Shown: one piece after another, positions 1-19,990 of the stretch
How the letters are laid out: each line of letters opens with the position of its first letter
Numbering within the stretch: position 1 is the stretch's first letter
Source of the DNA: Reclinomonas americana ATCC 50394
Lineage: Eukaryota
Length of the DNA: 23,583 bases
Reading direction: 5' to 3'
Assembly: GCA_048213135.1 (NCBI GenBank)
Contig: PS015202.1
Span: 149,795-173,377 of the forward strand
Translations under genes and position numbers: made by a program
Notes under the pieces: generated by a model
What the model was told of the DNA's origin: nothing
Databases searched by the model: none
The model's input: only the letters and a program-made list of their open reading frames with translations

Positions 1-2163
1 GCCGCTCGATACGACAATCGCCCCGAGAACAGGTGCGACACGTTGACCAGCGGCGAAGTCGGCGAGGCGGCCTGCAGCAGCGGTTTCTGTTTCTGCCACC
101 AGTGAGTCTCTCTGTGATGGTCGCAGCAAAGCAGATGGACTCCACACCTGCAACGGTCGGTTCTCGTCGTGCTGGAAGAACCGACTGCGTCGTGCAGTGG
201 CCGACTGTGGAGTGGTTGCGGTGGTCGGTGTAGAGTCAGCGTCGTCTGCGGAGCAAGTGAGCGCAAGAGGGAGACAGTGTCTGTCGTACAGAGGAGGAGG
301 GAATGCAGCCGCACCGGAGCCTGGGGTGTCGACACTGAGTGGCGACGGAGGTACAAAGGGTCGTGAGGCGCCGCTCGGACGACTGACGGCAGCTGTTGAT
401 GGAATAGGAGATGGTCAGCAGAGCGAGCGGGGGAAAAGAGGGAAGAGGCAGCAACCGGTAACAGTAACACCACGCACTCATGTAGTTGAAAATGGTGGAG
501 CCGGCACGGTCGATTGGCAAGCGCAGCGACTTGCGCTCCGCAGGCTGGTCGGCCAGCAATGTGGGACTTACCACCGTGGCCACCGACGGACCGGCTCTCC
601 TCTGCAGCGACTTGGAGACTGGCTTGCGCGGCACTGCCACCCACCCACCAGACTTGTCCATCGACGACAAGGCCGGTGGCGACGGTGCTGCCGATGCAGC
701 CGCTGTTGCGGTGGTGGTTGTTGTTGTTGTTGTTGTTGTCGACGTTGAGTCGGAAGGTGCCGCATGCGTGGTGCCTCCTAACCTCTCCTCGGCCAACACC
801 CTGCGACTGGTTAAGCAATAGAGGAGAGAGGAAAAGAGAGGGCAGTAACACAGGCACTCAACTCGGCAAACGGCCGCATCGATCGCGGCTCCAACTCGCC
901 ACACACGAGTGCGACCGCCGTCTCCTTGTCCAGCATTTCACCGACAAACTCCAAGTCGTCGGTGCCCAGCAAGCTCTCGTCTGGCTCCGAGAAGTGACAC
1001 AAGCGCTTGGCTATGGGATCAAAGACCACCTGGTAGCGAAACACCAACTCTGCGCGACGGAATTCGTCGGCGTACTCTCGTGGCACGGTGATGCGGTGGT
1101 CGAATTGCAGTCGCGCCAGCACACGGTCCACCTCGCGGTACTGCTGCACCATCTGGTGTGCCTTCTTGATGCCCACATTGTGAATGTTGGGCAGGTAGTC
1201 GCACCCACAAAAGATGCACAGACGAGTGATCATGTCGGGGGTGAACGACGCAAACGACAGCTGCTGATTGGCGCCAAGCATCTGCCACCAACAACGTGAG
1301 TCGCCTCTCTCCTCGCTCTCCTCTCAGGCACACACACACACACAGAGCGAGTGCAGCGTGCCTTGTACTTGAGCTCCTGCGCCTCGCCATCATTGTTCAT
1401 CTTGAAGAGGATGCGCCGGCACTGGTACGCCACCAAATCACTGTCTTCGGTGATCACCGCCTCCACATAGTCGGTGTTGCACAGGTACGCCAGCTGCGCA
1501 TCGGCCTCATACGGCGCCACCATGAACTCCACACCCTCAGCACGCAGCGCCTGCTGGAACGCATACGTCATGCCCGCCGTGACCTCAATGCCCTTGCGGA
1601 AGCACTCGTTCGCCTGCCCAGCAGCAGCACACACATTCACGACAAGTCCTTGTGCGGCGCCAATCATGACACGCGCGCGTAACTTCCTGCGCACGTCCCT
1701 CGCGCAGCAGTGCCAGTCCGCGCTCTCGTCCTTCCTTGCGCGACTTGTTGCGTCCCTCGTTGGTGCCGCGCTTGGCCGGCAGTGGGCGCCCATCAAACAC
1801 AATCACTGGCACCACATTGTGATGCCGCAAGAGACCCACCATGCGCATGCAGTATGCCAGGTATCTGTGTGAGTGTGTGAGAGTGTGTGGGTGGGAGCAG
1901 AGGGGGGAGTGGTGGAGGTGAAACTTGGTGGACGGCATGTTGAGGCACAGTTCGCGCGCGCAGGCATATGCGCCCCTGTGCAGCCACGCAGACGCATCCA
2001 CGGCCACCTGTGCGTGTGCGCACACATGCGAATGAGCGACAGTGTGTGTGTGAGAGAGAGAGAGCGCAAACACACTCACTCTCACCTTCTTGCCTGCGTA
2101 CTTGGAGACGTGCACAGTGACAAGGCATGACTTGAGGTGCGTGAGGAGGTTGGATATTCCCAT
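1..2163 (-). CDS. EXO1: Exonuclease 1 (XPG/Rad2 family), 3'-partial. Inferred exons: 2163-2086, 2007-1925, 1864-1684, 1613-1362, 1281-863, 800-478, 392-315, 245-148, 92-<1
   Basis: Spliced product has the XPG-N motifs MGISNLL..KYAGKKVAVDASAWLHRGAYACA and VFDGRPLPAK, the XPG-I motif VAPYEADAQLAYL..ITEDSDL, the H3TH motif CGCDYLPNIHNVGIKKA and FRYQVVFDP, then a disordered tail with an RSRFF MIP-box-like motif. Exons in the tail are less certain. Confidence 0.95.
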
Positions 2164-2635
2164 GACGCGGGAGAGTGGTCGTTGTGTAGACCACGCACTC
2201 GCGCGCGAGTTGCAGCTGTGAGCGCAGCGCTTGTGTAAACCACACGCGCAGGAGGGGTTTGCGATGGCTATGCCGGGCAAACCGGCACGTCATCGCTGCG
2301 CGTTTGTCCCACCCATCATTTCGTTGTTTTTTTCGACGGAGCATATGTTGCGTGTCTATGTGGCTCTGTGTCGGTGTGGAAGAGTGCATGTGCGCGTGTG
2401 AAGAAGGAGAGCAGAGAAGAGATTGTGCTTTGTGAGTTTGGTGCACATCAGAAGAAAACACATGCGCGTATGGCGTTTGTCTGTGTGCCATAGTGCACTA
2501 CAGACAGGCAAGCAGCAGAGGTGGATATTGTGGACAGCGAGCAGGGGAGAAAGAATGCGTGTGGGGCATGGTGTACATGTCGTCGACATGCATGTGCATG
2601 CCCACTCACTCACTCACTCACTCGCCTCCTTCCCC

Positions 2636-3403
2636 NNNNNNNNNNNNNNNNNNNNNNNNNNNNNNNNNNNNNNNNNNNNNNNNNNNNNNNNNNNNNNNNN
2701 NNNNNNNNNNNNNNNNNNNNNNNNNNNNNNNNNNNNNNNNNNNNNNNNNNNNNNNNNNNNNNNNNNNNNNNNNNNNNNNNNNNNNNNNNNNNNNNNNNNN
2801 NNNNNNNNNNNNNNNNNNNNNNNNNNNNNNNNNNNNNNNNNNNNNNNNNNNNNNNNNNNNNNNNNNNNNNNNNNNNNNNNNNNNNNNNNNNNNNNNNNNN
2901 NNNNNNNNNNNNNNNNNNNNNNNNNNNNNNNNNNNNNNNNNNNNNNNNNNNNNNNNNNNNNNNNNNNNNNNNNNNNNNNNNNNNNNNNNNNNNNNNNNNN
3001 NNNNNNNNNNNNNNNNNNNNNNNNNNNNNNNNNNNNNNNNNNNNNNNNNNNNNNNNNNNNNNNNNNNNNNNNNNNNNNNNNNNNNNNNNNNNNNNNNNNN
3101 NNNNNNNNNNNNNNNNNNNNNNNNNNNNNNNNNNNNNNNNNNNNNNNNNNNNNNNNNNNNNNNNNNNNNNNNNNNNNNNNNNNNNNNNNNNNNNNNNNNN
3201 NNNNNNNNNNNNNNNNNNNNNNNNNNNNNNNNNNNNNNNNNNNNNNNNNNNNNNNNNNNNNNNNNNNNNNNNNNNNNNNNNNNNNNNNNNNNNNNNNNNN
3301 NNNNNNNNNNNNNNNNNNNNNNNNNNNNNNNNNNNNNNNNNNNNNNNNNNNNNNNNNNNNNNNNNNNNNNNNNNNNNNNNNNNNNNNNNNNNNNNNNNNN
3401 NNN
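2636..3403. other. Assembly gap (others: 6442-7122, 9324-9553, 14391-14934, 17597-17677, 22650-22966)
   Basis: Runs of N, mostly flanked by low-complexity sequence. Confidence 1.
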
Positions 3404-4166
3404 CGTGGTCGTCGGCGATCACAATGGTCACATTGGCCTCGGTGTCAAGTGCTCCAAGGAAGTCGCCGGTGCCATTCAGGGTGCCATTCTGGCGGCCAAG
3501 CTGGCCATCCTGCCCATTCGCCGTGGCTACTGGGGCAGCAAGATCGGCACCCCCCACACTGTGCCCATCAAGGTGAGCGAAGGGAGGAAGGAGAGAGTAT
3601 GGGATGCTCTTTTCTTTTTGTTGTTGCTGCTTGCTGCAAGTGATCTCTGCTCCGCTTCCGTGATGATTCCATTTCTGTCTCTTGACGATCAAATTATGGA
3701 AGACAGATTAACCATCTTTCGGGACTGATGAAGATGGTGTCGACACTTGCAGCAAATGGCAGCAGTCTGCCTGCTTCCTATCTCCCTCTCTCTGTCGTTG
3801 ATGTGGGGTAGCACACTGTCTTGCGATGCATTGTTGCTCACTGGCGCGCGACTCGACCAGGTCACTGGCAAGTGCGGCTCTGTGCGCATTCGCCTGGTGC
3901 CGGCCCCGCGCGGTACTGGCATTGTCGGTGCCCCGGTGTCGAAGAAGATTCTGCACTACGCTGGCCTGGAGGACGTGTACACGTCGTCGTCTGGCCAGAC
4001 TGCCACCCTCGGCAACTTTGCCAAGGCTGTCTTCAACGCGGTCCTCAGCACCTACACCTTCCTCACCCCCGACCTGTGGAAGAAGACCAAGTTCCGCCAG
4101 ACTCCGTACCAGGAGCACACCGACTTCCTGTCGACTCAGAAGCTGAAGAAGCGCGTGGAGGAGTAA
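3404..4166 (+). CDS. RPS2: 40S ribosomal protein S2 (uS5), 5' part hidden in gap 2636-3403. Exons <3404-3572 and 3861-4166
   Basis: [84 protein letters not shown] intron 3573-3860; TAA 4164-4166. Confidence 0.97.
3655..3733 (+). ncRNA. Intronic box C/D snoRNA, snR39B/SNORD2-like, predicted to 2'-O-methylate the G in LSU rRNA CCCGAAAGAUGGU (yeast 25S Gm805 equivalent)
   Basis: Box C GTGATGA 3660-3666, box D CTGA 3725-3728, terminal stem CTTC/GAAG, and guide ACCATCTTTCGGG (3711-3723) complementary to a conserved LSU rRNA stretch. The D+5 base is C3720. It lies in an unusually long (288 nt) intron of a ribosomal protein gene. Confidence 0.88.
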
Positions 4167-4425
4167 TTCCACCCTCGCCAACGTCGGCTTGTTGCACGCT
4201 GTGCATTTGCATGAATGAATGGTGTGCTGCATACTCCCCGTTGAATTCGATTTTGAACACATGATTGCTTCTTTCATTTGCAACAGAGGGCGGAGGCCAC
4301 GTGCGTCTGACTCTGCATCGACAGAGGGCTACAGCAGAAGAAGCATCATTAGCTAATTTGTTGCACTTATGCTGTCATGAATGCTGGACACATGCATTAC
4401 CGAAACGGTACAAGCACGCGGCTGT

Positions 4426-4557
4426 GGGCCCTCTCTCTCCGTCGACACTCATCGGAACATACACTCCGATCGCGCAGCAAAAGATAACCAGCCCTGCTGC
4501 TGCACATCCACCGGCGGGCCCTCTCATCGCATTGATCGGAAGTGCACTCCGATCGCG
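4426..4557. promoter_or_regulatory. Duplicated inverted-repeat element upstream of MsrB
   Basis: ATCGGA-N8-TCCGAT (4451-4470) and GATCGGA-N7-TCCGATC (4534-4554). Each is preceded by GGGCCCTCTC and ends in CACTCCGATCGCG. A regulatory role is inferred from position only. Confidence 0.4.
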
Positions 4558-4640
4558 GGGAATAAAAAAGCGGACAAGGGTTGTGTTTCACATTCTTTCA
4601 TCAGCCTCTGAGCCAAGAACAACAACAGCAACCAAGAACC

Positions 4641-5024
4641 ATGAGCGACGAAGACGTGTCTCACCTGAGCGACTCGCAGTGGCGTGAGCGACTGGAGCCG
4701 GGAGTGTTTGCAGTGGTGAGTTCACCACTCTGCATGCATGTGTGTGTGAGTCGTTGCGTTTGCTGACACTCCAGTCACTCAGCTGCGACAAAAGTCAACG
4801 GAGCGACCAGGCACCAGCAAGTACAACAAGTACCACCCGGCCGATGGTGGTGAGTGTGTGAGACTCCGTGTGAGAATGTGATTGTGCTGATCACTGACTG
4901 CCTCTCTCCCCTTTCCAGTGTTCCGCTGCGTCGGCTGTGACACACCACTGTACCAGGCCAACACCAAGTTTGGTGAGTGCGATGTTGCTTGCGAAGCAGG
5001 GGCGCGGACGATGTGACTGACACT

Positions 5025-5063
<39 letters not shown>

Positions 5064-5427
5064 GCTGATCGCAGACAGCGGATGTGGATGGCCGGCGTTC
5101 TACGAGGGCATTCCGGGGGCCATCACCGAGACCACCGATGAGGACGGCCACCGCACCGAGATCACCTGCACCAAGTGTGGCGGACATGTTTCGTTTGTAT
5201 TTATAATCGTCTTGCAGCGATAATGAGCCAAGAAGTCTCACATGTTTGTTGATGTTGCGTAGCTCGGCCACGTTTTCAAGGGCGAGGGCTTTGCCACCCC
5301 CACGGACGAGCGGCACTGCGTGAATGGCATTTGCTTGCGCTTCGAGGCCGGACCCAAGTCGGCCGGCACTGAACCCGCTGGTGCCGGCGCATCAGCTGGC
5401 GGCAGCGGTAGTGGCAGCAGCCGCTAA
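4641..5427 (+). CDS. MSRB: Peptide methionine-R-sulfoxide reductase B. Exons 4641-4715, 4783-4849, 4919-4972, 5075-5187, 5263-5427
   Basis: Spliced: ..WRERL..VLRQKSTERPGT..FRCVGCDTPLY..TKFDSGCGWPAF..RTEITCTKCGGHLGHVFKGEGF.TPTDERHCVN. Two Zn-binding CxxC motifs; the catalytic residue is encoded as Cys (TGC), not Sec. Confidence 0.96.
5028..5062. repeat. (TG)n microsatellite in MsrB intron 3; similar tracts occur in many introns of the window
   Basis: Directly visible dinucleotide run. Confidence 0.95.
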
Positions 5428-5591
5428 TGGAGGCATGCGGTGGTATGTGTGTAGAAAGGGAGGGTCGGCAAGGGAGCGTTGTCACTGTAAATGAAGCATT
5501 TCATTGACAACTCTGCTCGTGAGTGAGTGAGAGCACGCAGTCTGCAGGTACGTTGACAGTGCATGGTTGGTCGTTCACTGCTGGGCTGCAG

Positions 5592-5972
5592 TCACGTGCT
5601 GAGGCCGATTCTGCCGGTGGGAGGAAACACTGGAGGATCGATATTCATCAGTGCGACTGCCACGCACACTTGGACTGAGTTCCTGTCAACGATCGGCAGC
5701 AACTGTACTCTACCGCGCGTACCTAGTGTGTGCTCCTCCGCCACACGGCGCTCACTTCCCTTCTCTGCTCGTTCCACGCGACGCCACAAAGAGCGAAGAA
5801 TTTCACGAACTTCCGGCTCATCGCAGTGGTTTCGCAGGAACCGCAAGCCACTCTGGATGTACAAATCGTCGCCTCTCCCGTGCTCCTTCGCCAGCTCTTC
5901 GAGGCGAACCACCAGATCCATGCTTTGTGAAGAGAACTCGATTATGATCAGTGCGGCCGCTGCGCGGTCCTG
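5592..5972 (-). CDS. Possible small hypothetical protein (5' end uncertain)
   Basis: Open frame QDRAAAALIIIEFSSQSMDLVVRLEELAKEHGRGDDLYIQSGLRFLRNHCDEPEVREILRSLWRRVERAEK.. looks helical and fills an otherwise large (about 780 bp) intergenic gap. No family recognised. Confidence 0.3.
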   Translation of the reverse strand, partial: QDRAAAALIIIEFSSQSMDLVVRLEELAKEHGRGDDLYIQSGLRFLRNHCDEPEVREILRSLWRRVERAEKGSERRVAEEHTLGTRGRVQLLPIVDRNSVQVCVAVALMNIDPPVFPPTGRIGLST

Positions 5973-6211
5973 CTGAGTGGTGAAGTTGCAGCATCAAATA
6001 TGCAACCTCCATCACGATTACGTACAGGGGCATGTTCTTATGTGCATTATATGTGCACAGTGGACGTCTGCACGAGTTGCAACCCCCAGCTTCTCGACGA
6101 ACGCATTTCTCGTGTCGGTGTCCTGTGTTATGCATCACGCTTCGTTGACCATTTCTCTGACCACAGTGTCTCTGTGCTCTCCTCGCACACCCTACGGACA
6201 ACACCAGCAAC

Positions 6212-6441
6212 ATGTTAGAGGGAACTCGACTCTCACTGGCCTTCCGCGAACTGCGTGAGCTTCCGGTGCCTGTGTTGCGCAAGTACAGCAAACGCATCCG
6301 TGAGTTGGATGTGAGCAGCAATGAGCTCAGGTGCGCACACACACAGTGTGAGAGAGACGTGTTGTGTTTGTAGTGTGTGTCCCTCCTCTCTCTCTCTCTC
6401 TCTTTCTTACATCATGACAATCAGTGATCTGACTGCACTGG
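6212..6441 (+). CDS. Leucine-rich-repeat protein N-terminus (resembles the LRMDA/C10orf11-type N-terminal LRR). Exons 6212-6330 and 6425->6441; continues into gap
   Basis: MLEGTRLSLAFRELRELPVPVLRKYSKRIRELDVSSNELS|DLTAL contains an LxxLDxSxNxL repeat; GT-AG intron 6331-6424. Not present in the ORF track because of its length. Confidence 0.75.
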
Positions 6442-7122
6442 NNNNNNNNNNNNNNNNNNNNNNNNNNNNNNNNNNNNNNNNNNNNNNNNNNNNNNNNNNN
6501 NNNNNNNNNNNNNNNNNNNNNNNNNNNNNNNNNNNNNNNNNNNNNNNNNNNNNNNNNNNNNNNNNNNNNNNNNNNNNNNNNNNNNNNNNNNNNNNNNNNN
6601 NNNNNNNNNNNNNNNNNNNNNNNNNNNNNNNNNNNNNNNNNNNNNNNNNNNNNNNNNNNNNNNNNNNNNNNNNNNNNNNNNNNNNNNNNNNNNNNNNNNN
6701 NNNNNNNNNNNNNNNNNNNNNNNNNNNNNNNNNNNNNNNNNNNNNNNNNNNNNNNNNNNNNNNNNNNNNNNNNNNNNNNNNNNNNNNNNNNNNNNNNNNN
6801 NNNNNNNNNNNNNNNNNNNNNNNNNNNNNNNNNNNNNNNNNNNNNNNNNNNNNNNNNNNNNNNNNNNNNNNNNNNNNNNNNNNNNNNNNNNNNNNNNNNN
6901 NNNNNNNNNNNNNNNNNNNNNNNNNNNNNNNNNNNNNNNNNNNNNNNNNNNNNNNNNNNNNNNNNNNNNNNNNNNNNNNNNNNNNNNNNNNNNNNNNNNN
7001 NNNNNNNNNNNNNNNNNNNNNNNNNNNNNNNNNNNNNNNNNNNNNNNNNNNNNNNNNNNNNNNNNNNNNNNNNNNNNNNNNNNNNNNNNNNNNNNNNNNN
7101 NNNNNNNNNNNNNNNNNNNNNN

Positions 7123-8725
7123 CCGTGTCGCTCCCGTCCGGACTTGGTGTCGGTGGTGCAGGTGCCCCTAACGGTGGTGGTGTTGGTGGGACTCCAGCCG
7201 ATGCGTTGCTGGCGGAAAAGGAGGCGCGACTGCGGAATCGGCGGGAGCAGCAGCGCAAGATGTTGTCGGAGGTGGCGTTTGAGACGGCGGCTGCACCGAC
7301 GGCCGGTGAACTCAATCGTAACGCGCTGTCACCGCGCTCTGCCAACAGCACGCCACACACATCAATCACGGGTCTCACGCGGGAGCAGGTGCAGTTCTTG
7401 CAACAGCAGCAGCAGCAGCTGCAACAGCACCGACAATCGCAGCAGCAACAGCAGCAACCGCAGCAGCAAGAGAACCGACCTTCGCGCTCCATGTCCATGC
7501 CGGCGGGCCGTGCCGACCTGCTGGCGGAGATCAGGTCACGGGAGCACCCGATGCAGCAGCACATGGATGTGGTGGTGGACACGGAGGCAGTTGCGTGTTG
7601 AGGACTGAGGCAAGATGGTTTTGTCATGCAACTGACACTCGTGTCGTGTGTGTGTGTGTGTCTGTGGCGTAGGTACGTCGACGCGCTCAGCAACAACCGA
7701 TTGGTCTGCCGACCTCGCAGGCGCCGGCAGCAGCCGCCGCCGCCGCAGGTGGGCAAACTCCGCGGCAACGACCACCCCCACCGCCACCCCCCAAACGGCA
7801 AGTGCCGATCGGCATGGACTCGACCGTCGCCGATCTCGACGACAGCGACCTCGACACCGAGTACGCCAACATGCAGAGTGAGTTTGGCGACGACGACTTC
7901 ACGCTGGCCTCACAGGCGCCACTGGCCTCGGCGGTGCAGCAACGACAGTCGGCAGAAGCAGCCGCCGCCGTCGCCGCCGGTGCGCTGTCACCCCGAGGTG
8001 TGACGCCGGGTGGCGAGCAGCAGCAGCAGGTGCCAGCGCAGCGCAGAGTGACCGGGCAGCGCTTGGCGGGCATCGACAACCCCAACGCCATCGCCAATGC
8101 ACGCACACTGCTGCGTCCGGTGGCCGCCGACAAGACACCCGTCCCCACGACCGAGCGCGCTCAGCTGTCGCAAGCCATGGTTGATCCACCGTCGTCCCGC
8201 GAGCCAAGCATGCGCGTGCGGTCACAATCACAATCGCAACAACAAGTGCAGCAGGAGCAGCAGCAGCAGCAGCAGCCGTCGCCACCACAGCAGCAGCAGC
8301 AGCAGCAAACGATGCCAGTCGCAACCGCAGCAGGGCCCGTGCGTACCGCCAGCGCACAAGCCAACGGCCGCTCCCCACACCCACTGTTCCCCGAGGACAT
8401 TGACGAGCGCACCGAGCCGGCCTCGACCATTGCCTCCTCCGCCCACCCCCTAGCCTCCGTCGCCGCACGCGCCTCACGCGAACCCGCTCCCGCCATCGGC
8501 CTCACCCACCGCCTCGACAAGGCCGCCCGCCTCACCCAACTAACCGCCCTCGACGGCCCTCTCCCCGAACTACCACGCCTGCCCGAGTTCGACACGGACG
8601 GCGCCCCCGATCTGCACCAACAACCGCAATTCCTCCCCTCCGAGATCCAGTTGCTGACCGACGTGATGCCACCGCCGCCACGCAACGACGGCGCTCCAGA
8701 GGAGGAAGACTGGGACGACGCATGA
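7123..8725 (+). CDS. C-terminal part of a low-complexity (Gln/Ala/Pro-rich) protein with a WH2-like helix, poly-Pro and terminal EEEDWDDA; probably the same gene as the LRR at 6212. Exons <7123-7589 and 7673-8725
   Basis: Long GC3-rich open frames joined in phase by intron 7590-7672; GRADLLAEIRS 7506-7538; PPPPPPP 7772-7792; stop TGA 8723-8725. The link to the LRR exons crosses a 681-N gap and is not verifiable. Confidence 0.75.
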
Positions 8726-8791
8726 ACGTACACGGGAGTAAAAAAGTTGTCCGCGTCCTCCTCCGTCTGTGTGTGCCGGCACCGCCATTGG

Positions 8792-11700
8792 ATGTTCAGT
8801 CGCAGCAGCGCAGGCGGCCTTGCGCCGCGTGCCGCATCCATGTGGACGCGACTGGCCACCGCCTGGCACGCACGTCCCTTCCACCAACAACACCAACAAC
8901 AACAGTTCTTTGCACTTTCGCATCGCCAGCACTTTCATCGTCGCTCCCGCCACGACAATGGCAGCCGCAGTGCGAGCAGCGCAGGTGGAGGAGGCAGTGA
9001 CAACAGCGGTAACAACAACAACGATGAGGAGAGTCAGTTGTGGTTGAGTGACAAAAGTGAGAAGCAGTCGCGTTCTCGCACAAAGACGCAGACTGACCAG
9101 GGTGAGTACGCACGCGTGTGTGTGTGTGTGTCTGGAGTGAGAGAGCGTGTGTGTTGTGCTGACACGTGTGTGTGTGTGTGTGCGTTTTGAGTAGAGATTG
9201 CTGAGGAGGATGCTGTGGATGGGAGTTTGCTTGTGCATCCTCGTCGTGCGTCTTCGTCTTCGTCGTCGGCGACTCGCCCTGAGTCGAGTGAGGAGAGTGA
9301 GGATGATGATGCGGAGGGCGAGGNNNNNNNNNNNNNNNNNNNNNNNNNNNNNNNNNNNNNNNNNNNNNNNNNNNNNNNNNNNNNNNNNNNNNNNNNNNNN
9401 NNNNNNNNNNNNNNNNNNNNNNNNNNNNNNNNNNNNNNNNNNNNNNNNNNNNNNNNNNNNNNNNNNNNNNNNNNNNNNNNNNNNNNNNNNNNNNNNNNNN
9501 NNNNNNNNNNNNNNNNNNNNNNNNNNNNNNNNNNNNNNNNNNNNNNNNNNNNNATGATGATGATGATGATGATGAGGATGATGAGGATGATGATGATGAT
9601 GACGATGAGGATGATGAGGATGATGACACAAATGTGTTTGTGGCGGGCGCGCGTGGCAGCTCGCCGGCCAACACGTCGAGTGATGCCAGTGCCGGAGGTG
9701 AGAGGCACGGGAGAGGCAGTGTGAGAGCTTGCAGCTCCGGAGGACTCCGATGGAGACAAGAGACAAGAGAGATGAGAGAGAGAACGAGAGGCTGTGTGCT
9801 GTTGGAGACAACTCTGCGTCGTCTGAAATGCATGTGTCCTTGTTGCTGTTGCGCAGCCTTGGTGCATCCGAGTAGTCTGCCGCTGCCGAGCGAGCTGCTG
9901 GTGATTCCGTTGTATCGGCGACCGGTGTTTCCGGGCATTGTGGCGCCGATCTTGCTGCAGGACGATGACTTTGTGCGGCAGTTGACCAGTCTGCGCGATT
10001 CCGGTGTCAAGCATGTGGGTCTGTTCTTGGCCAAGGAGGCGCCGGCGGGGACGCCGGATGCCTCTGGCGCCGCAGCTGGTACGGCTGGTGCTGCAGCGTC
10101 GCCGTCGTCGAGCCCGTCGGATGCCGCCAAGGCGACCGACAGTACCAAGGCCGGCGACAAGGTGCCTAGCAGTTGTCTCCGTCGTATTGATTGATTGCTT
10201 GCTCATTTCGTCGCGCAGGACAAGAAACCGGGAAGCAGCAAAGAGGAAGATGTGCAACGGCTGGTCAAGAGCATGGAGCAAGTGCACCACATCGGTGTGA
10301 TTGCGCGCATCATTCGCATCCTGCCGAGTCGATCGGGCGGAGCGCAAGTCATGTTGTCGGGACTGAGTCGTATCGAGGCCGTTGAGGAGGTGAAGAATCG
10401 CGATCGACTGACTGTGCGTGTGCGCCACCTGAAGGTGAGTACGTCCTGCCTGACAGCGTGTGTGTGTGAGCATCTCATTGTTTTGCTCTGCTTGCAGAAC
10501 AAACCGATTGACACGTCGGACACGGAAGTCAAGGCCTACACTGTGGAGATTGTGAACACGATCAAGGACATTCTCAAGGTGCCTCCTTCAAGCAGAGAAG
10601 CGGGAATCTGCGTGTTCCAGAGCACTAACACGTGCCTCCCCCCGCACAGCTGAACCCCTTCTTCAAGGAGCAGCTGCAGACGTTCCTCGATCAAGTGGAC
10701 CTGGGCAATCCGAGCGAGTTGGCCGACCTGGCTGCGGCGCTGACCACGGCCGAGGCTGTCAAGTTGCAGGAAGTGTTGGACGCTGTGGAGTTGCACGACC
10801 GTCTGTCCAAGTCACTGACGCTGATCAAGACCGAGTTGGATCTCAACATGATCCAGCAAAAGATTCAGCGGCAGCTGGAGGACAACATCAGCCAGACGCA
10901 CCGCCGATACATGCTCATGGAGCAGCTGAAGGCCATCAAGAAGGAGCTGGGGCTGGAGCGTGAGGACAAGGACACCGTGATCAAGAAGTTCCGCGATCGG
11001 CTGGCCGAGCTCAAGGTGCCGGAGCACGCCAACAAAGTGATTGAGAACGAGATGGTGAGTTGCTGGCGCAGCGCAAGGAAATATGTCAGATGCTGATGGT
11101 GGTTTCTTGTTCTGCTCTACCTCGTAGAATAAGCTGCAAATGTTGGAGGCGTCGAGCGCCGAGTTCAACATGACGCACAACTATCTCGACTGGCTCACTT
11201 CGTTGCCGTGGGGCATCTACTCCACCGAGAATCTCGACATCAAGCACGCCAAGGGTGAGCGAAGAGGGGAAGGGGGATCAAAGAGAGGGAGAGCGCAGGC
11301 AGTAAGCACGAGCATCATTCTGTTCTTCGTTGCTCCATCGTGCTCTGTTTCTCTCGCTCCGCGTCTCTTTACCAGTCTCTCTGTCTCTATCTGAGCCTCT
11401 TTGGTAGTCTCTCTGTCTCTTTGTCTTTCTGTCTTTCTTTCTTTCTGTCTGTCTGTCGGTGTGTGTGGCTGTCTCTCTCTCTCTCTCTGTTCTCCTTTGT
11501 CTTGCTCTCCTCTTTTCCTCTGTCCCCTTGCTCCGTTCTTCCCCCCCCTTCTCTCTTTCTCTCTGCTCTGCTGTGTGCTCCTCGATTCTTCCCTCCTGTT
11601 GCCCCTTGTCTCCTTCTCTCTGCTCAGTTCTGCTCTATTCTGCCGCTTCACTTCTTCTCTCCTTCTCTCCTTCTCTTGCTCTCCTCTGCTCCACTGTCCT

Positions 11701-13763
11701 CTTTCCTTTCCCCCCTCCCCCCTCCCCTTTCTCTTCCCCTTATCGTGCTCACCTTTCTTGCACAACGCAGCGGTGCTCGAGGAGGACCACTTTGGCCTGG
11801 ACGATGTGAAGCAGCGAATCCTGGAGTTTATTGCTGTCGGTGGCCTGCGCGGCACTGTGCAAGGTAAAATCCTGTGCATGGTCGGACCGCCTGGTGTCGG
11901 CAAGACCTCCATCGGCAAGTCGATTGCGCGCTCGTTGGACCGCTCCTTCTACCGCTTCTCGGTTGGCGGCCTCAGTGATGTGGCTGGTGAGAGCGCAAAT
12001 AATCGTTCACCTGCACATACAATGATTCTCATTTCTCCGTTTTGAACAGAAATCAAGGGCCACCGACGAACGTACATTGGCGCCATGCCCGGCAAGCTGC
12101 TGCAGTGCTTGAAGACCACACAGAAGGCCAACCCGGTCATCATGATTGACGGTCGGTGGAGTATGCGCGCTCACTCTGGACATTCAGAAGTGACGCTCAT
12201 GTCCCCCCTGCGCACAGAAATCGACAAGCTTGGTCGTGGATACCAGGGTGACCCGGCGTCGGCACTCCTCGAGGTGCTCGACCCGGAGCAAAACCACGCA
12301 TTCCTGGACCACTTCCTTGACGTGCCGTTCGATCTGTCCAAGGTTCTGTTCGTGTGCACCGCCAACTCGCTCGACACCATCTCCAAGCCGCTGCTCGATC
12401 GCATGGAAATCATCCGGCTGAGCGGCTACGTGTTGGAGGAGAAGGTGGCGATCGCCAACCGGTACCTCATCCCGCACGCAGCCACAGACTCGGGCATCAC
12501 CATGGTTTGTGTGTTGAAATGGGGCACAGAGGGAAAAGACAATGTGAGTTGCTGAACATGGATTGGTGGCCACAGGAGCAAGTGAAAATCACCGACGGAG
12601 CCATTGAGGAGCTGTGCAAGTCATACTGCCGCGAGGCTGGCGTGCGCAATCTGCAAAAGCACATTGAGAAGGTGTTCCGCAAGGCCGCCTACAAGGTGAG
12701 CGTTGGTGTGTGGATAATTTGGAGGAAGTGCACCGCTGAATCCGAGGTGAATGCACCACCAGCTGGCCGCCAAGGAGGTCGAGAATGTCACGGTGACACC
12801 GGAGAACCTCTCGGACTATGTCGGCAAGCCGGTGTTTACGTCGGATCGCTACTATGCGCGCACCCCTGTTGGCGTCGTTGCGTGCGCGCTCTCTGCCTGC
12901 ATCCAACTATTCGCCCGTCCACTCACCCGTTTCCACACACAGACCATGGGCCTGGCCTGGACGGCGATGGGTGGCAGCACGCTGTACATTGAGACGGTGC
13001 TCGAGAAGGCGTACTCGTCCTACAAGAAGCTGACCACGGCCGCCGAAGCCAAGGATGCCAGCGCCAAGGACGAGGAGCGATCGCTGTCCGGAGGTCGCCT
13101 GAAGGTCACCGGCCAGCTGGCGTCGGTGATGCAGGAGAGCACCGACGTGGCGTACACATACGCCCGCCACTTCTTCTATGAGACGGTGCTGCCGAATCTG
13201 CCGGCGGACAGCGGGGTCGACACGTCGTTCTTTGACCATGTGCGTGTGGGAGAGAAAGGGAGGGAGGGGAAAATGCTTGATCCTTCTCATCCTTTTCTCT
13301 GTTGGCAGGCGCGCATCCACCTGCACGTGCCGGAGGGTGCGACACCGAAGGATGGTCCGTCGGCCGGTTGCACGGTGGCCACCTCGATTCTCTCGCTCGC
13401 ACTCAACGTGCCGGTGCGCCACAACTTGGCCATGACGGGCGAGATCACGCTGACAGGTATTTGAGTTTGTGCTTGTCTGTGTTCTTCCTCCTGACTGTCT
13501 GACTGACTGACCGCTCACTCGCCGCAGGCAAAATCCTCCCGATCGGTGGCGTCAAGGAAAAGACAATCGCAGCAAAGCGCAGCGGCATCACGCGTGTGAT
13601 TCTGCCGGCCGGCAACCGCAGCGACTGGGACGAGATGCCGGAGCACATCAAGAAGGGCATCAAGGTGCACTTTGTCAAGACCTTTGAAGACGTCTTCAAG
13701 ATCGCCTTCCCCACCGTGGCCAGACACGCGCGCAAGACGCACAAGCCCGCCAAGAAGAACTAG
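8792..13763 (+). CDS. LONP1: Mitochondrial-type Lon ATP-dependent protease. Exons 8792-9101, 9195-9697 (spans gap), 9857-10161, 10219-10434, 10498-10578, 10650-11054, 11128-11254, 11771-11986, 12050-12151, 12218-12504, 12576-12695, 12763-12876, 12943-13239, 13309-13456, 13528-13763
   Basis: Arg/Ser-rich N-terminus free of acidic residues (presequence-like); [26 protein letters not shown]; Walker A GPPGVGKT; Walker [31 protein letters not shown]; catalytic PKDGPSAG and GGVKEK; no C-terminal SKL. Confidence 0.96.
11300..11760. repeat. Long polypyrimidine low-complexity tract in the 516-nt Lon intron (11255-11770)
   Basis: Almost exclusively C/T on the + strand. Confidence 0.85.
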
Positions 13764-13811
13764 AAGAGAACGAAATCGCAAACACAATACACTTGGCCTT
13801 GCTCTCGTTTG

Positions 13812-14370
13812 TCATGCCACCGCGGCCGTAATGTAAAGCCCCACCACACAACCGTAGCCGAGGACAAACACCACCGATCGCAGCGTGGCCATAGCGTTGT
13901 TGGCGCCCATCAGGTACACGATAATATACAGTGCGCGCAAGCCGAGGAAACCAATCGACAATCCATTCACCCAACCGCGCTGCGATGCCTCCATCGGCAC
14001 CTGCATGTGCGCAATGATGGCGGCGGCGGCGAAGAAGGGCGTCACCTCCAGAGAGTTGAGATGGGCGTTGTAGGCGCGACGACCCCAGCCTGTGCAATTA
14101 GTGTGAGAGAGAGAGAGAGACGCGAGAGCTCTCAGACTTGACACACGTGCCATCGAGCACTTCAGCTGCTTGCTTGCGAGGGTCCACGTTGTCGTACTTG
14201 CCCTTGTTGCGATGAATCCTGTGTGTGTGAGGGAGAGAGAGAGTGAGAGTGTGCATTTGTGTGTGTGTGTGTGTGTTTTGTCGCAATGCGCACCATACGG
14301 ATTTGAGTGTCGATGGCACGTACACCAGAATGCCGGCGGCGAGCACACACCAGAGAGGAATGGTCAACAT
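13812..14370 (-). CDS. MAPEG-family membrane protein. Exons 14370-14294, 14218-14151, 14089-13812
   Basis: MLTIPLWCVLAAGILVYVP..YDNVDPRKQAAEVLDGWGRRAYNAHLNSLEVTPFFAAAAIIA..FLGLRALYIIVYL..LRSVVF: MAPEG signature RAxxAHxNxxE and four hydrophobic segments. Confidence 0.9.
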
Positions 14371-14958
14371 GCTTGAGGAAGGGAGTGAGANNNNNNNNNN
14401 NNNNNNNNNNNNNNNNNNNNNNNNNNNNNNNNNNNNNNNNNNNNNNNNNNNNNNNNNNNNNNNNNNNNNNNNNNNNNNNNNNNNNNNNNNNNNNNNNNNN
14501 NNNNNNNNNNNNNNNNNNNNNNNNNNNNNNNNNNNNNNNNNNNNNNNNNNNNNNNNNNNNNNNNNNNNNNNNNNNNNNNNNNNNNNNNNNNNNNNNNNNN
14601 NNNNNNNNNNNNNNNNNNNNNNNNNNNNNNNNNNNNNNNNNNNNNNNNNNNNNNNNNNNNNNNNNNNNNNNNNNNNNNNNNNNNNNNNNNNNNNNNNNNN
14701 NNNNNNNNNNNNNNNNNNNNNNNNNNNNNNNNNNNNNNNNNNNNNNNNNNNNNNNNNNNNNNNNNNNNNNNNNNNNNNNNNNNNNNNNNNNNNNNNNNNN
14801 NNNNNNNNNNNNNNNNNNNNNNNNNNNNNNNNNNNNNNNNNNNNNNNNNNNNNNNNNNNNNNNNNNNNNNNNNNNNNNNNNNNNNNNNNNNNNNNNNNNN
14901 NNNNNNNNNNNNNNNNNNNNNNNNNNNNNNNNNNCCGGAGGGCAGTCTTGTGTGGTAA

Positions 14959-15375
14959 TGGTTTACACTCCAACACCACTGCTCGTACCGTCAGTACACG
15001 AGTGCACCACTGACTGAGGATGCATCGACAGAAGACTCGGAGGCAATCGTCGATCGTGACTGGGATTGGAGGTCTCCATCCAGATGTTTCACGCTCTACA
15101 TTGTGTTGCAGACAATAAATGAACCAGTTGAAGCTGAAAATCTGCAAGGCGTACATTCTGACCCCTCTCGGCACGTACTCACCATCGAGCACTGGTTGAC
15201 ATTCATTCTAGCACTGGAATACATGTTGCACGGCTACAATCGGTGGATGAGAAAAACTGGGGCAGTCCAAACCGAGCAAAACCAGCCACCAATCTTGTTC
15301 GAATGTGACTTGCCTCTTTGCTTGCTGTGGTCCGCACTTGTCCGCACGGAAGCCAGCAACGCGATAGGACTTTGA
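14959..15375 (+). CDS. Possible terminal exon of an unknown protein (5' part may be in the gap)
   Basis: 138 stop-free codons (..VLTIEHWLTFILALEYMLHGYNRWMRKTG..) with visibly lower GC3 than neighbouring genes; no family recognised. Confidence 0.25.
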   Translation, partial: WFTLQHHCSYRQYTSAPLTEDASTEDSEAIVDRDWDWRSPSRCFTLYIVLQTINEPVEAENLQGVHSDPSRHVLTIEHWLTFILALEYMLHGYNRWMRKTGAVQTEQNQPPILFECDLPLCLLWSALVRTEASNAIGL

Positions 15376-15486
15376 ACGATTGGGGAGGGGGCCGTGCTGC
15401 CGCATCGATGTGTCGTGAGAGCGCCCACCAGGTCGACATGCAGTTCAAGAGTCGACGTCGACGTCGACCACCACATCGGCGTACAG

Positions 15487-15609
15487 CTGTTCCCCGATTG
15501 CCAGAGCTGGAGAGTACCCTGTACCCCGACCTTTCCCGGTCGACTGTACCCCGTACCCCGAGGGCAAAAAAGTGCTGTACCCCCGTACCCCACGTCCCGC
15601 GCACCCCCA
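15487..15609. repeat. Cluster of short direct repeats GTACCC(C)
   Basis: GTACCC at 15514, 15521, 15546, 15553, 15577 and 15585, plus the degenerate copy CTGTTCCCCGA at 15487. Confidence 0.8.
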
Positions 15610-16035
15610 TCGAGTCGGTCCTCTGACGTCGCACATATCGGAAAAACACACCGCGGTCGGTTGCTGGTGGAGGAGGTGTGCGATCTGTGGAGGAACAAGT
15701 GGTCGTTTGTACCCATGTGCGTGCGCGAGAGAAGAAAAGAAACAGGCGGAGAAAAAGAGAATGCAAACGTCGACGTCGACTCCATTCTCTCTCCTCGCTG
15801 CGCACGCAGAAGGCGATGCAGATTGTGAAGATAGAGACACACAAGGAGAAGAGAGACAACGTGCACTCGCAGCGGTCACAGCCAGACGACGTTCACGCGC
15901 CTTCCAAGTCGGGCGGACGCACAATTTTGTTTTATTTTCGTTGTTGCTCCGCGCCACGCACGCACGCACGCACACACACAGTCCACACTCAAGAAAGGAC
16001 TCACTTACACACGTACACACTCGCGCATCATCAAC

Positions 16036-18389
16036 ATGGCAGAGCGACTCCGATGGTGTGTCTTGTCTGCATCACTTATATCAGTCACCTGTCTCTCACA
16101 CACGTGCTGCTGTCTCTTCCCCTTCTCTCTCACGCACACACAGGTTGGTTCTCGGCGGCACTGGCTTCATTGGCCGGTGAGTCTGTCTGCTTGCTTGCTT
16201 GTGTGTGTGTGTGTGTGTGTGTTTTGTGTTTGAGGTACACACAATGTCTCACACGCACGCTCACGCAGCCACCTCGTCAAGTACCTTGTGCGCAACGACT
16301 TGGCCTCCAAGATCCGCGTCGTCGACAAGATCATGCCCGCACTGGCGTACCTCACTCCCGAGTTTGAGGAGTACTATAACGCGGCTGTTGTCGAGTTCAA
16401 GCAGGTGCGTTGTCTCACGCACTCGCACACAGCAAGAGAGAAGGAGAAGGAGAGAGAGTCTGTATGTGTGCGTATGTGCATCTCACTCTCTCAGAGTGTG
16501 TGTGTGCTTGTGCGGGCCCGCTGTTGTGTGTGTTTGCGGAGAAATGGCCAACTCACTCACACCTTGTCTTCTCTCTTGTCCACAGGCCAACCTTGGCAAC
16601 CCTGGTTGCGTCTCTCTCTCTCCCCACACGCCCCTCTGCTGCTTTAACAACAGCAGCAGCAGCAGCATGCAAATGATTGACTTGTTGTTTCTTTTTGGAC
16701 AAATAACACACAGCTCACTTGGCGCGCGCGTTTGACGACCCCGAGGGCACCTTCGACATTGTCGTCAACCTGGCGGCGGAGACCAAGTACGGCCAGGCGG
16801 AGGATGTTGCGGCACCAATCAAGCATTGATGCATGCACACACACTCTAGTGCTGAATGGCGGCAAAATGCAGGTGTACAAGCAACTCATCCTCGACGTGG
16901 CACTGGCGGTGGCCACCGAGGCCGTCCGCCGCGGCGGTGTGCGCAAGTTCATTCAAGTGAGCACTGCGCAGATCTACGACTCGTCCAAGGTTCGCTCTTG
17001 TTTCATTTTTCTCTGGCTGGTGAGACAACTGAACTCACTCTGCCGCGTGAGTAACAGAAGACGAGCACGGAGAGCAGCAAGATCAAGCCGTGGACGCTGC
17101 TGGCGCGTTACAGCCTGGAGGCCGAGGAGGCCCTCCGTGGCATTGCTGGGTGCGCGTGAATCCAAAGTGTGTTCTCCTTCACGTGAGGCGATCTGTGCTG
17201 ACTGTGTGCTCTTTGCAGACTGCCGCTGGTGGTCCTGCGACCGGCCATCTGCTATGGCCCGGGCGACCAGAACGGTGTGATGCCGCGCGTCATCTGCGCT
17301 GCCTCGTACACTCAGCTGGGCGAGAAGATGCAGTTCCTGTGGGGCAAGGATCTGCGGTGCGTTCTCTCTGCCTAAGTTTCTCGCCCATCTCAACCCGCTG
17401 CTCACTCTCTCCTTCACTCACTCCAGCATCAACACTGTGCATGTGGCCGACGTGGCGCGTGCCATTCACCACGTGGCCATCACGGCGGCGGCTGGATCCG
17501 TGTTCAATCTGTCCGATGAGGGCGACACCAGTTGCGTCTCCACGAGTTGCCGCGATGTGTGTTGTAGATGGTATTCACTGTCTCACCGCCCCCCCCNNNN
17601 NNNNNNNNNNNNNNNNNNNNNNNNNNNNNNNNNNNNNNNNNNNNNNNNNNNNNNNNNNNNNNNNNNNNNNNNNNNNNGGAGAGGGGGAAGGGGGAGAGAG
17701 GAAGGGGAAGGAGAGGAGTGTGTGTGTGAGTGTGAAAGAGGTGTGGTTGTTGCCGGATGTGAAAAAAGAGAACGTGAAAGCGCTGTTGATACGTGCAGTC
17801 GAATGTGGTCGGTGTTGTCTGTGTACCCTTGTCGTGGAAGGTTACAGTGAGTGATGTGAATGAGCGACTGGGTAGTTGTATGCGAGTGCATTTGTTATTC
17901 AAGGCAGTAGAATGATGCTAGATGCGTGAAACATGCACTGTGGTGCACGTTGCCTGCTGCTGGCTCTGTTGTTCAAGTCAGTGGAATGTGGTTTGTTAGA
18001 AGGTTGATACTGCGTCGTAGTGAGGGACGTGAAATGAGCGAAGCTGGGTTGCTGTATGCGAGTGGTTCTGTGGCACCAAGACAATAGGATGTGGTTGGAC
18101 GCGGGGTAGAAATGGTTGATGTTGTATGTGCACTGCTGTTATTCTGTGAGTAACGTGAGTGAGAGAAGCTTGAGTCGAATGTTGAATTGGATGTGGTTGG
18201 GTGTGCGATGAAGTTGTTGTTTTGTTGTGCGTGCGAGTGGTTCTGCTGTTGTCCTTGCCCAGAATGCGGTGATCAATTCTCTGTGATTCTGACCTTGTCT
18301 TTCCGCCATTGCAGATCAGCGACGACCTGGTGCGCGAGTCCGTGCAATACTGGATCGACATCAAGGCCTTCCCGCCTCTCCTCCACTAA
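16036..18389 (+). CDS. NAD-dependent epimerase/dehydratase (atypical extended SDR). Exons 16036-16055, 16144-16176, 16269-16404, 16586-16604, 16714-16805, 16873-16989, 17058-17149, 17219-17356, 17427-17530, [missing in gap], 18315-18389
   Basis: LVLGGTGFIGRHLV (Rossmann GGxGxxG), IRVVDK, DIVVNLAAET, KFIQVSTAQIYD, VVLRPAICYGPGD, NTVHVADVARAI, VFNLSD; last exon ISDDLVRESVQYWIDIKAFPPLLH*. Confidence 0.9.
17800..18255. repeat. Degenerate ~175 bp periodic repeat in a long intron
   Basis: AGTGAG.GAYGTGAA(A)TGAGCGA..CTGGGT.GYTGTATGCGAGTG at 17846 and 18019; TGCGAGTG recurs at 17881, 18057 and 18232. Confidence 0.6.
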
Positions 18390-18587
18390 AGCAGAGTGGT
18401 ACCTCAAGTGTGTGTAAGAGCGCCTCCACGGCATGACATGCGCGTGCCTGTGGTGGTGGTGGTGGTTGGGTTCTTTTGAGAAAAGTGAGAACAGGCACGC
18501 GCGGTCTGTCCGTGTCGCTGTCTCAAGTGTGCGCAAATGTATGACATAACAGAAAAGCATCTCTTTGGTACATTCTCTCGCTGTCGC

Positions 18588-19990
18588 TCACGACGACGAT
18601 CGACTGCCGCTGTCCAAGCGTCGCAGCACTTCTATGATGTCGGCCAGACGCTGCGCGTCGCTGACCAGTGGGCCGGTGACCACATCGCACGTGACGGAGC
18701 ACGACACTTGGCCGGTGGCCGTGTTCAGCGAGAGGCGCAGGGGTGAGTGCATACGGGCGTAGGCCTCGTGTTCCCCATCCACCGCCAGGTAACTGCACAT
18801 GTGCATGTCGAGCGGGGTCACCATGGTGCGCACCTCGGCGCGACTCTTTCCCGGCTGTGGCAAGAAATATGCACAATAATGAGGACACAACTCCCAGAGT
18901 CCGCGTTTTTTTTACATCGCTCTCACCTTTTCACGCGTCTGGTGCATCAGGGCAAATCGCTCATCTTGCAGCCGAATGACCGCGCGACTGCGATCGCCCG
19001 GAGTGCGAATGGCAGACAGACGAGCCAACTGCAACAAACGGTGACATTGAGAAACATGAGAAAAAAGGAGTGAGACGGAAAGTGGCAAGTAGAGATCTGA
19101 CCTCGCGCACGACATTCTCCTCTCGAGGGGTCGGCAGCGGAGTATGACCGCCAATCAGCGTGACCAGATCACCCTGCGAGCACCACGTGACACTGCATGC
19201 ATGCACGCGGCATGAGCACACACTTGTCTCGGACAAACTGCTGGACACAGACACACACACACACACCGTGACGACAGGCCGCCTATGGCTTTGACTTGCA
19301 CTGGCTCACCGCCGTTGCTGCTGTCACTAGTGGTGCTGGCCAATCGCTTGGCATCAAACACGTGCTTGACAAGGCGCTGCGCCAAGACGTCGGGGACATC
19401 GAATTTGATTTTCTACACGACAAGTCGCAAGAGTCAGCATGCACCAACGAGGCAGGAGCGTAGGCGAGGGGGGAGGGGATGGGACGAACCTCCTTTGTGG
19501 ACAGAGAACCGCTGAGTGCCAGGCTCGTCACCGGCGCTCGTCGTCTGCCATCAGCTGCAGTCAGCGACACTGACTGACCCAACTCCACGCTCTCTCCGCC
19601 CGTTGACACACACACGCACCTTATGCACTTGCCGAGGGAGATGAACGCCTCGCGCACCTCATCCACTGTCAAGTCCACATTGATCGACGACACTGTCTTG
19701 CTGGCCTTGGTCGGCTTGCTCTCCGCCGCCGCGGCCTTGCGTTCCTTGGGACCGGAATTCGTCACCGCAACTGCCTTCTTCTTCTTCTTCGCCACCTGCT
19801 TGTCCTTGGGCGACACCGAGGAGCGCACCACATTCTTCTTCTTCTTCTGAGGTGCGTCGAAAGGAGAGTTCTCTGCGGAGGCGACAACGAGAGGTGCGCT
19901 CTCCTCCTCGTCAGAGGGCTGGTCGAGAGAGACCTTGGAGGCAATCGCATGGCGACGGGCTTCTTGACGGGCGAGGCGCTTGAGAACCAT
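18588..19990 (-). CDS. Hypothetical protein with Lys-rich (NLS-like) N-terminus and unrecognised globular C-terminus. Exons 19990-19620, 19544-19490, 19412-19310, 19240-19224, 19173-19102, 19028-18927, 18854-18588
   Basis: A continuous frame is obtained with six GT-AG introns of 50-77 nt, including a 17-nt microexon; PQKKKK and AKKKKK clusters; codon usage like neighbouring genes. Confidence 0.7.

Follow-up and report, generated by a model that had tools for sequence, protein, structure and literature searches.

We analysed a window of 23,583 bases of nuclear DNA from Reclinomonas americana ATCC 50394 (contig PS015202.1, positions 149,795 to 173,377 of the forward strand) and found that its introns open with two kinds of 5' splice site (donor). 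We modelled nine genes by their coordinates and tabulated 50 donors in our own annotation. Of these, 41 are of an ordinary type that reads G/GTGAGT or G/GTGCGT, where the slash marks the exon-intron boundary, while the other nine, distributed over five of the nine genes, begin with GTT and carry the usual tail one base further into the intron. This GTT class is real at the level of DNA and protein, is frequent in the window, and is best described as a one-base-shifted donor. The sites exist, and most of them are needed to obtain correct proteins. A one-base displacement is seen in the tail as well as in the exon profile, and use of the class depends on a base other than G at the last exon position (-1).

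The GTT donors and their displaced signal

The class was first pointed out in an original prediction made from the letters of the DNA, which listed nine GTT strings with their coordinates and strands among a total of 51 donors. All nine strings are present where they had been placed; the total became 50 in our gene models, and the number of the GTT type stayed at nine. The nine introns, with their strand, donor and what bears on the placement, are as follows.

801 to 862, minus strand: intron 5 of the EXO1-like gene (62 nucleotides), donor A/GTTGAGT at 862; an open frame is kept in the model
1614 to 1683, minus strand: intron 3 of the EXO1-like gene (70 nucleotides), donor A/GTTACGC at 1683; junction GRAQE/ANECF, and the exon matches XPG_N
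1865 to 1924, minus strand: intron 2 of the EXO1-like gene (60 nucleotides), donor A/GTTTCAC at 1924; junction NMPSTK/YLAYCM
5188 to 5262, plus strand: intron 4 of the MsrB gene (75 nucleotides), donor T/GTTTCGT at 5188; abutment of exons on Protein Data Bank (PDB) chains
7590 to 7672, plus strand: intron of a low-complexity gene (83 nucleotides), donor A/GTTGCGT at 7590; coding frames
12877 to 12942, plus strand: intron of the Lon protease gene (66 nucleotides), donor C/GTTGCGT at 12877; gapless alignment
16605 to 16713, plus strand: intron 4 of the epimerase-like gene (109 nucleotides), donor G/GTTGCGT at 16605, the sole member with G at -1
16806 to 16872, plus strand: intron 5 of the epimerase-like gene (67 nucleotides), donor T/GTTGCGG at 16806; junction KYGQAED/VYKQLIL
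17531 to 17596, plus strand: start of intron 9 of the epimerase-like gene, donor A/GTTGCGT at 17531; the remainder lies in the N gap of 17597 to 17667

All nine introns start with GT, and all eight for which the 3' end is known end in AG. Most positions had been said to be pinned by conserved protein motifs, and this is what we observe: gapless protein alignments fix both sides of six donors, one donor is fixed on one side, and two are placed by frame continuity only. In the EXO1-like gene, the spliced model is gapless across the junctions at both 1924 and 1683 against the five homologs aligned (of 10). The epimerase-like junctions at 16605 and 16806 are gapless against 12 full-length homologs picked from 149 matches, as is the 19-nucleotide exon encoding ANLGNP(A) next to the 16605 intron, and the Lon junction at 12877 is gapless against 12 of 120 homologs. 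For the MsrB donor at 5188, the flanking exons adjoin exactly in all seven of the PDB chains common to both exon searches; on 6tr8_A, for example, the pair covers residues 84-123 and then 124-150.

The remaining three donors are held less tightly. At 17531 the match to 12 homologs stops at NLSDEGDT, giving one-sided support; reading through the donor yields non-homologous sequence whose codon likelihood is negative in every frame, and the exon that should follow falls in the N gap. At 7590 codon likelihood gives unambiguous frames on both sides and an in-frame stop lies just past the donor; weak in-frame GT alternatives are present at -21, -18, and -15, and the site has no homology pin. The least secure of the nine is 862, where read-through reaches a stop after 17 codons. 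This donor is not pinned because the downstream exon has two open frames with similar codon likelihood, of which the Ser/Thr/Ala/Pro-rich one is preferred only on plausibility.

As possible in-frame alternatives, every GT or GC within 45 bases of each GTT site was listed. A GC donor three bases downstream (GTT/GCGT) was rejected, as it places one extra residue inside the gapless blocks in all three testable cases (12877, 16605, and 16806), and a base error at +1 of an ordinary donor is ruled out because it would break the frame. U12-type introns are recognised by an extended [AG]TATCCTT donor, and none of the nine strings carries it, which rules out minor introns. The idea of a mobile-intron repeat family was also discarded, the median local score being 8 within the GTT class and among ordinary introns alike. 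The two groups are of similar length, with a median of 68.5 nucleotides for the GTT class and 71 nucleotides for ordinary introns. Judged by their sequence, the GTT-class introns are genuine major-type (U2-type) GT-AG introns.

The GTT type accounts for 9/50 introns of the window (95% confidence interval, 8.6-31%; binomial p = 6e-8 against the human 1.5% discussed below), in agreement with the prediction of about one intron in six across five unrelated genes. An upward bias in this frequency is possible because the window was flagged for its striking pattern. A link to the absence of G at -1 had also been claimed, on counts of 8/11 against 1/40, and is recovered with our own models: 8/13 donors without G at -1 are of the GTT type compared to 1/37 donors with it (Fisher p = 1.9e-5). 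The association is found as well without two ambiguous ordinary donors at 1343 and 21563 (8/11 against 1/37, p = 3.7e-6), with homology-pinned donors only (5/6 against 1/17, p = 0.001), and in the worst case, where one unsettled donor is counted as ordinary without G at -1 (8:6 against 1:36, p = 3.7e-5). Seen from the side of the two classes, G occupies -1 in 1/9 GTT donors and 36/41 ordinary donors (p = 4e-7 at the ordinary frequency).

The ordinary donors (n = 41) have G at -1 in 36 cases, G at +3 in 33, A or C at +4 in 17 and 16, G at +5 in 36, and T at +6 in 24. For the GTT donors (n = 9) the corresponding signal consists of T at +3 in all nine, G at +4 in six, C at +5 in eight, G at +6 in eight, and T at +7 in six. 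None has G at +5, so that what had been reported for +5 and +6 is borne out at both positions. The heptamer GTTGCG[TG] is present in five of the nine. The ordinary consensus of the window is itself GTGAGT together with GTGCGT and not GTAAGT, recalling the preference of Thecamonas for C at +4.

A few donors outside the GTT class are difficult to place. The ordinary donors at 1343 and 21563 are ambiguous, both lying inside GT repeats. With T/GTGTGTG at 1343 (minus strand), the EXO1-like gene carries a six-residue insertion, ARCTRS (1344-1361), relative to all five aligned homologs; a GC donor at 1361 (minus strand, G/GCACGC) would make the alignment gapless, which makes a GC-AG intron possible at this place. 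In the MAPEG gene, the position of the second donor, 14144 (minus strand, T/GTGTCAAGT), follows from the reading frame only; this donor lacks G at both -1 and +5 and is a poor match to either class. The one donor of the 50 that is unsettled belongs to the third intron of the gene at 18587-19990 (19173-19309, minus strand), where the good-looking donor G/GTGAGCC at 19309 disrupts the reading frame. The alternatives are an exon that extends to a GTGTGTG donor at 19262 and a 17-nucleotide exon (19240-19224) followed by a 50-nucleotide intron; the true donor may be the GTGTGTG site, with a base other than G at -1.

In the window, the motif GTTG[AC]G occurs 4 times in sense exons and 15 times antisense, a depletion that is weak evidence because codon usage confounds it. 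Compared to its 4 occurrences inside sense exons, the motif is found 6 times at donors, and the equivalent counts for GTG[AC]G are 38 and 26; the GTT motif thus predicts a donor about as well as the ordinary motif does. One GTTGCGG heptamer (19765-19771, minus strand) lies in frame in the first exon of a minus-strand gene and is apparently unused as a donor.

The displacement of the signal was measured with a scoring profile built from the 41 ordinary donors, which were themselves scored leave-one-out and averaged +2.62 bits when read normally and -7.99 bits when shifted. When positions +4 to +8 of the nine GTT tails are read as +3 to +7, they total +21.7 bits (mean of 2.4 per site), whereas in the normal register they total -67.3 bits, confirming the claim of a distinct class with its downstream signal displaced by one base. 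The definition of the class as having no G at +5 forces a low score in the normal register but not a high score in the shifted one. The 359 other GTT sites of the window without G at +5 have a mean shifted score of -2.35, and in resampling nine sites from these 359, none of 200,000 draws reached the observed mean.

The exon side is displaced in the same direction. A is found at -1 in 5/9 GTT donors (p = 0.03 against a background of 0.22), as it is at -2 in 19/41 ordinary donors, and position -2 of the GTT donors resembles the ordinary -3. Summed over the nine sites, the exon side scores +5.5 bits when read as shifted and -18.0 bits unshifted. Toward the 3' end of the introns, the branch motif CTSAY is present within the last 45 nucleotides in 4/8 GTT-class introns and 34/39 ordinary introns (p = 0.03), while the looser YTNAY motif is found in 6/8 of the GTT class. 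Two GTT-class introns without CTSAY carry TGAAT instead.

How the GTT donors may be read

We give about an even chance to the reading in which the GTT donors are a one-base-shifted register read by the 5' end of U1, and we infer that U1 (perhaps U6) is the reader and that the small nuclear RNAs (snRNAs) are standard. On a GTT donor, the 5' end of U1 would pair one base out of register. The C of U1 that normally lies opposite G at exon position -1 would take the G at intron position +1, +3U, +4G, +6G, and +7U would replace +2U, +3G, +5G, and +6U in the pairing, and exon position -1 would acquire the preference for A of the normal -2. Cleavage would still precede the sole GU and would be set later by the catalytic core, where UGCGU at +3 to +7 would offer U6 the same contacts as the ordinary +2 to +6. 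In that event it would be the GU, and not the distance from the helix, that determines which bond is cleaved.

Several of our results weigh against this reading. We folded the sites with the standard U1 5' end (string from PMC4856993, Table 2), a standard U1 being assumed in place of the organism's own, and the predicted duplexes had a median of -1.7 kcal/mol for the GTT donors and -7.1 kcal/mol for the ordinary ones (Mann-Whitney p = 4e-5). The +1 shifted register was the minimum-energy duplex for 5/9 GTT donors, and for the other 4/9 it was not. A simple shift of standard U1 is therefore not a full explanation. Of the shifted U1 register put forward in the original prediction, the part that stands is the agreement between exon and tail displacement, while the pairing with standard U1 is weak and is best in the shifted register in only five of nine. 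The further proposals made there, a lineage-specific mode of recognition by a variant U1 or U6 or by altered U1C, LUC7, or Prp8, are conjectural. The weakest site, 1924, has a shifted-tail score of -6.4 bits and fits no register. C at +5 is found in 8/9 GTT donors compared to 16/41 ordinary donors with C at the matching +4 (p = 0.009), and because of this excess the GTT class is more than the ordinary signal moved by one base. The reading is also based on the DNA and protein sequences of a single window with 50 introns, where three of the nine donors lack a pin on at least one side.

An identical one-base displacement of the tail would result from a bulged U. In this case U1 and/or U6 would pair with +1G and +2U normally, the extra U at +3 (or +2) would bulge out, and GCGU would pair as +3 to +6. 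Among human registers a bulge at this place has been validated (PMC4856993, Figure 1C legend), and the catalytic stage would have to fit the extra base anyway if +6G and +7U pair with U6. The exon side of 16605, the only site with G at -1, scores +1.7 bits unshifted and -1.9 bits shifted, so that a bulge fits this donor better and the shifted register fits it worse. However, with a bulge the U1 base facing -1 stays available, and the preference for G at this position should persist, which is contrary to the drop from 36/41 to 1/9 described above; -1 of the GTT donors shows instead the A preference of the ordinary -2, unlike what a bulge would give. Since the tail is displaced under both readings and the exon profile has moved by one base, the shifted register is favoured, and we regard the bulge as possible rather than probable.

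GUUGCGU could also be recognised directly by an additional variant of U1 (or U6), or by a protein, and two donor grammars would then run in parallel. Such a dedicated reader seems improbable to us: the Rfam scan found no snRNA gene in the window, the sample is small, a single standard U1 is reported for Thecamonas trahens despite its preference for C at +4, and in Entamoeba, whose U1 was able to co-evolve with a GUU-type donor, the change is a genome-wide switch and not a coexistence of two classes (bioRxiv 10.1101/2022.06.08.495308). The Entamoeba case shows at the same time what a dedicated reader could look like, and the stereotyped heptamer in 5/9 donors, the over-representation of C at +5, the weak predicted pairing of standard U1 in any register, and the lower share of introns with CTSAY would all be in keeping with one. 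It is because of the weak duplexes, the +5 C excess, the fewer CTSAY motifs, and the misfit of 1924 that a dedicated reader stays among the candidates, as does greater involvement of U6 or of proteins. Equally doubtful in our view is the broader claim that the lineage runs G/GUG(A/C)GU and N/GUUGCGU (about one intron in six) genome-wide, with the second read through a variant U1 or U6 or a protein factor and not through slippage of standard U1.

That the class is an artefact or a product of chance, through misplaced donors, errors of the draft assembly, or an accidental concentration of odd sites in the window, is very unlikely. In favour of an artefact, 862, 7590, and 17531 lack a pin on at least one side, the assembly has many N gaps, the evidence is at the DNA and protein level only, and it was the conspicuous pattern that drew attention to the window. 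Against it, conserved proteins fix six sites to the base, the downstream GC donor adds a residue wherever it can be tested (3/3), the frame would not survive a G-to-T error at an ordinary +1, and the statistics remain strong in worst-case recounts.

Genes and other features of the window

The window is eukaryotic nuclear DNA, GC-rich (about 55-60% outside gaps), with several N gaps and short introns, of which there are up to 14 per gene. The nine genes modelled are the following.

2163 down to 1, minus strand: EXO1-like nuclease gene, with an XPG_N match; its homologs carry PF00752 and PF00867
Ribosomal protein uS5 gene, with a Ribosomal_S5_C match
Plus strand: MsrB gene, with PDB matches
6212 to 8726, plus strand: low-complexity gene without a family match, named by eye, with a possible leucine-rich N terminus
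Plus strand: Lon protease gene, with protein and domain matches
Minus strand: MAPEG protein gene, with a domain match
Plus strand: NAD-dependent epimerase/dehydratase-like gene, whose homologs are PF01370
18587 to 19990, minus strand: unnamed gene, from the gene model
Metallophos phosphatase gene, with a domain match

Single exons of the epimerase-like gene searched alone gave no Pfam match. Scans of the window with Rfam and for tRNAs found no family, no tRNA, and no snRNA. The protein collection searched does not contain the window's own proteins; over one 135-residue exon of the Lon gene, the best matches in it were an unnamed protein (61%) and, as the best named one, Thecamonas trahens (59%). 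A metagenome scan with the largest Lon exon returned 14 loci with a top full-exon identity of 52%, and two of these (L009 and L010) are GC-rich eukaryotic contigs with an intron layout that differs from that of the Lon gene in the window. With matches of at most 52% and another intron layout, these loci provide no close relative for a cross-species comparison.

Two introns are unusually long, 11255-11770 (516 nucleotides) and 21563-22158 (596 nucleotides), and both are CT-rich and of low complexity; inspected by eye, the latter seems to contain a unit of roughly 130 nucleotides repeated about three times. In the intergenic sequence upstream of the epimerase-like gene (15520-15600, plus strand) there are several close GTACCCC(G) repeats, which could possibly represent a promoter or a cluster of binding sites.

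Significance and comparison with known systems

Reading of a 5' splice site out of register concerns a small fraction of human sites and has been proved site by site. If perhaps 10-30% of introns use such donors here, with their stereotyped motif and clear link to the base at -1, the organism would offer a natural system in which to ask what U1 binding has to do with the choice of the cleaved bond. It would equally be a system for how an extra base is handled when U6 replaces U1, and for whether snRNAs or proteins at the 5' splice site have adapted. There is also a practical side, as a gene finder that has learned only ordinary donors would get roughly one intron in six wrong here, to the detriment of many multi-intron genes.

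A full-text literature search for GUUGCG together with 'splice site' returned nothing relevant by title or by the start of the abstract. The closest cases known to us differ from the GTT class in one or more respects. In Entamoeba, GUUUGU(U) donors are found in 88-90% of introns and U1 has changed to ACAAAC (Roy and Bowser, bioRxiv 10.1101/2022.06.08.495308). Donors starting with GUU are common to both systems, and in Entamoeba the lineage-specific grammar is tied to snRNA pairing. However, GUUGCGU donors are a minority here (9/50) beside an ordinary majority (41/50), whereas the Entamoeba motif takes in nearly all introns. A genome-wide transformed donor of the Entamoeba type is ruled out in the window, the atypical motif being confined to 9/50.

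Preferences of the GUGCGU kind, with a standard U1, are described for Thecamonas trahens and for Mamiellales in section 16 of the same preprint (bioRxiv 10.1101/2022.06.08.495308). The ordinary donors of the window, with G at +3 in 33/41 and C at +4 in 16/41, resemble this preference for C at +4. A second class shifted by one base is present here, while that section mentions none for Thecamonas or Mamiellales. Thecamonas is also described as intron-poor, in contrast to the number of introns per gene in the window.

The nearest precedents for the pairing itself are human, and the original prediction was right that shifted and bulged U1 pairing is known there. In PMC4856993, shifting and bulging at +3 (or +2) are both described as validated registers, and the validated noncanonical registers all told add up to 1.5% of 201,541 human 5' splice sites; the GTT class here makes up 9/50. 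In the human bulge at +3 (or +2) (Roca et al. 2012, via PMC4856993), one extra nucleotide follows GU and the remainder pairs as usual, as is the case here for the tail, but the preference for G at -1 is lost in the window, contrary to what a bulge predicts. The human +1 shifted sites (Roca and Krainer 2009, via PMC4856993) have a poor normal match to U1 that becomes good when moved by one base, much as the profile scores of the GTT donors do, and they share with these donors cleavage at GU and a pyrimidine as the extra base after GU. The human test oligonucleotide for this register reads CA/GUCAAGU (PMC4856993), where the original prediction had named GUUAAGU-type donors, and the tail here is GCGU, matching the organism's own GUGCGU consensus, unlike the human +1 shifted sites. 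Validation with suppressor U1 belongs to these human sites, whereas the class described here is known from sequence alone. What would be new in Reclinomonas, on this evidence, is the high frequency of a kind of 5' splice-site recognition that is already known, as a rarity, in humans.

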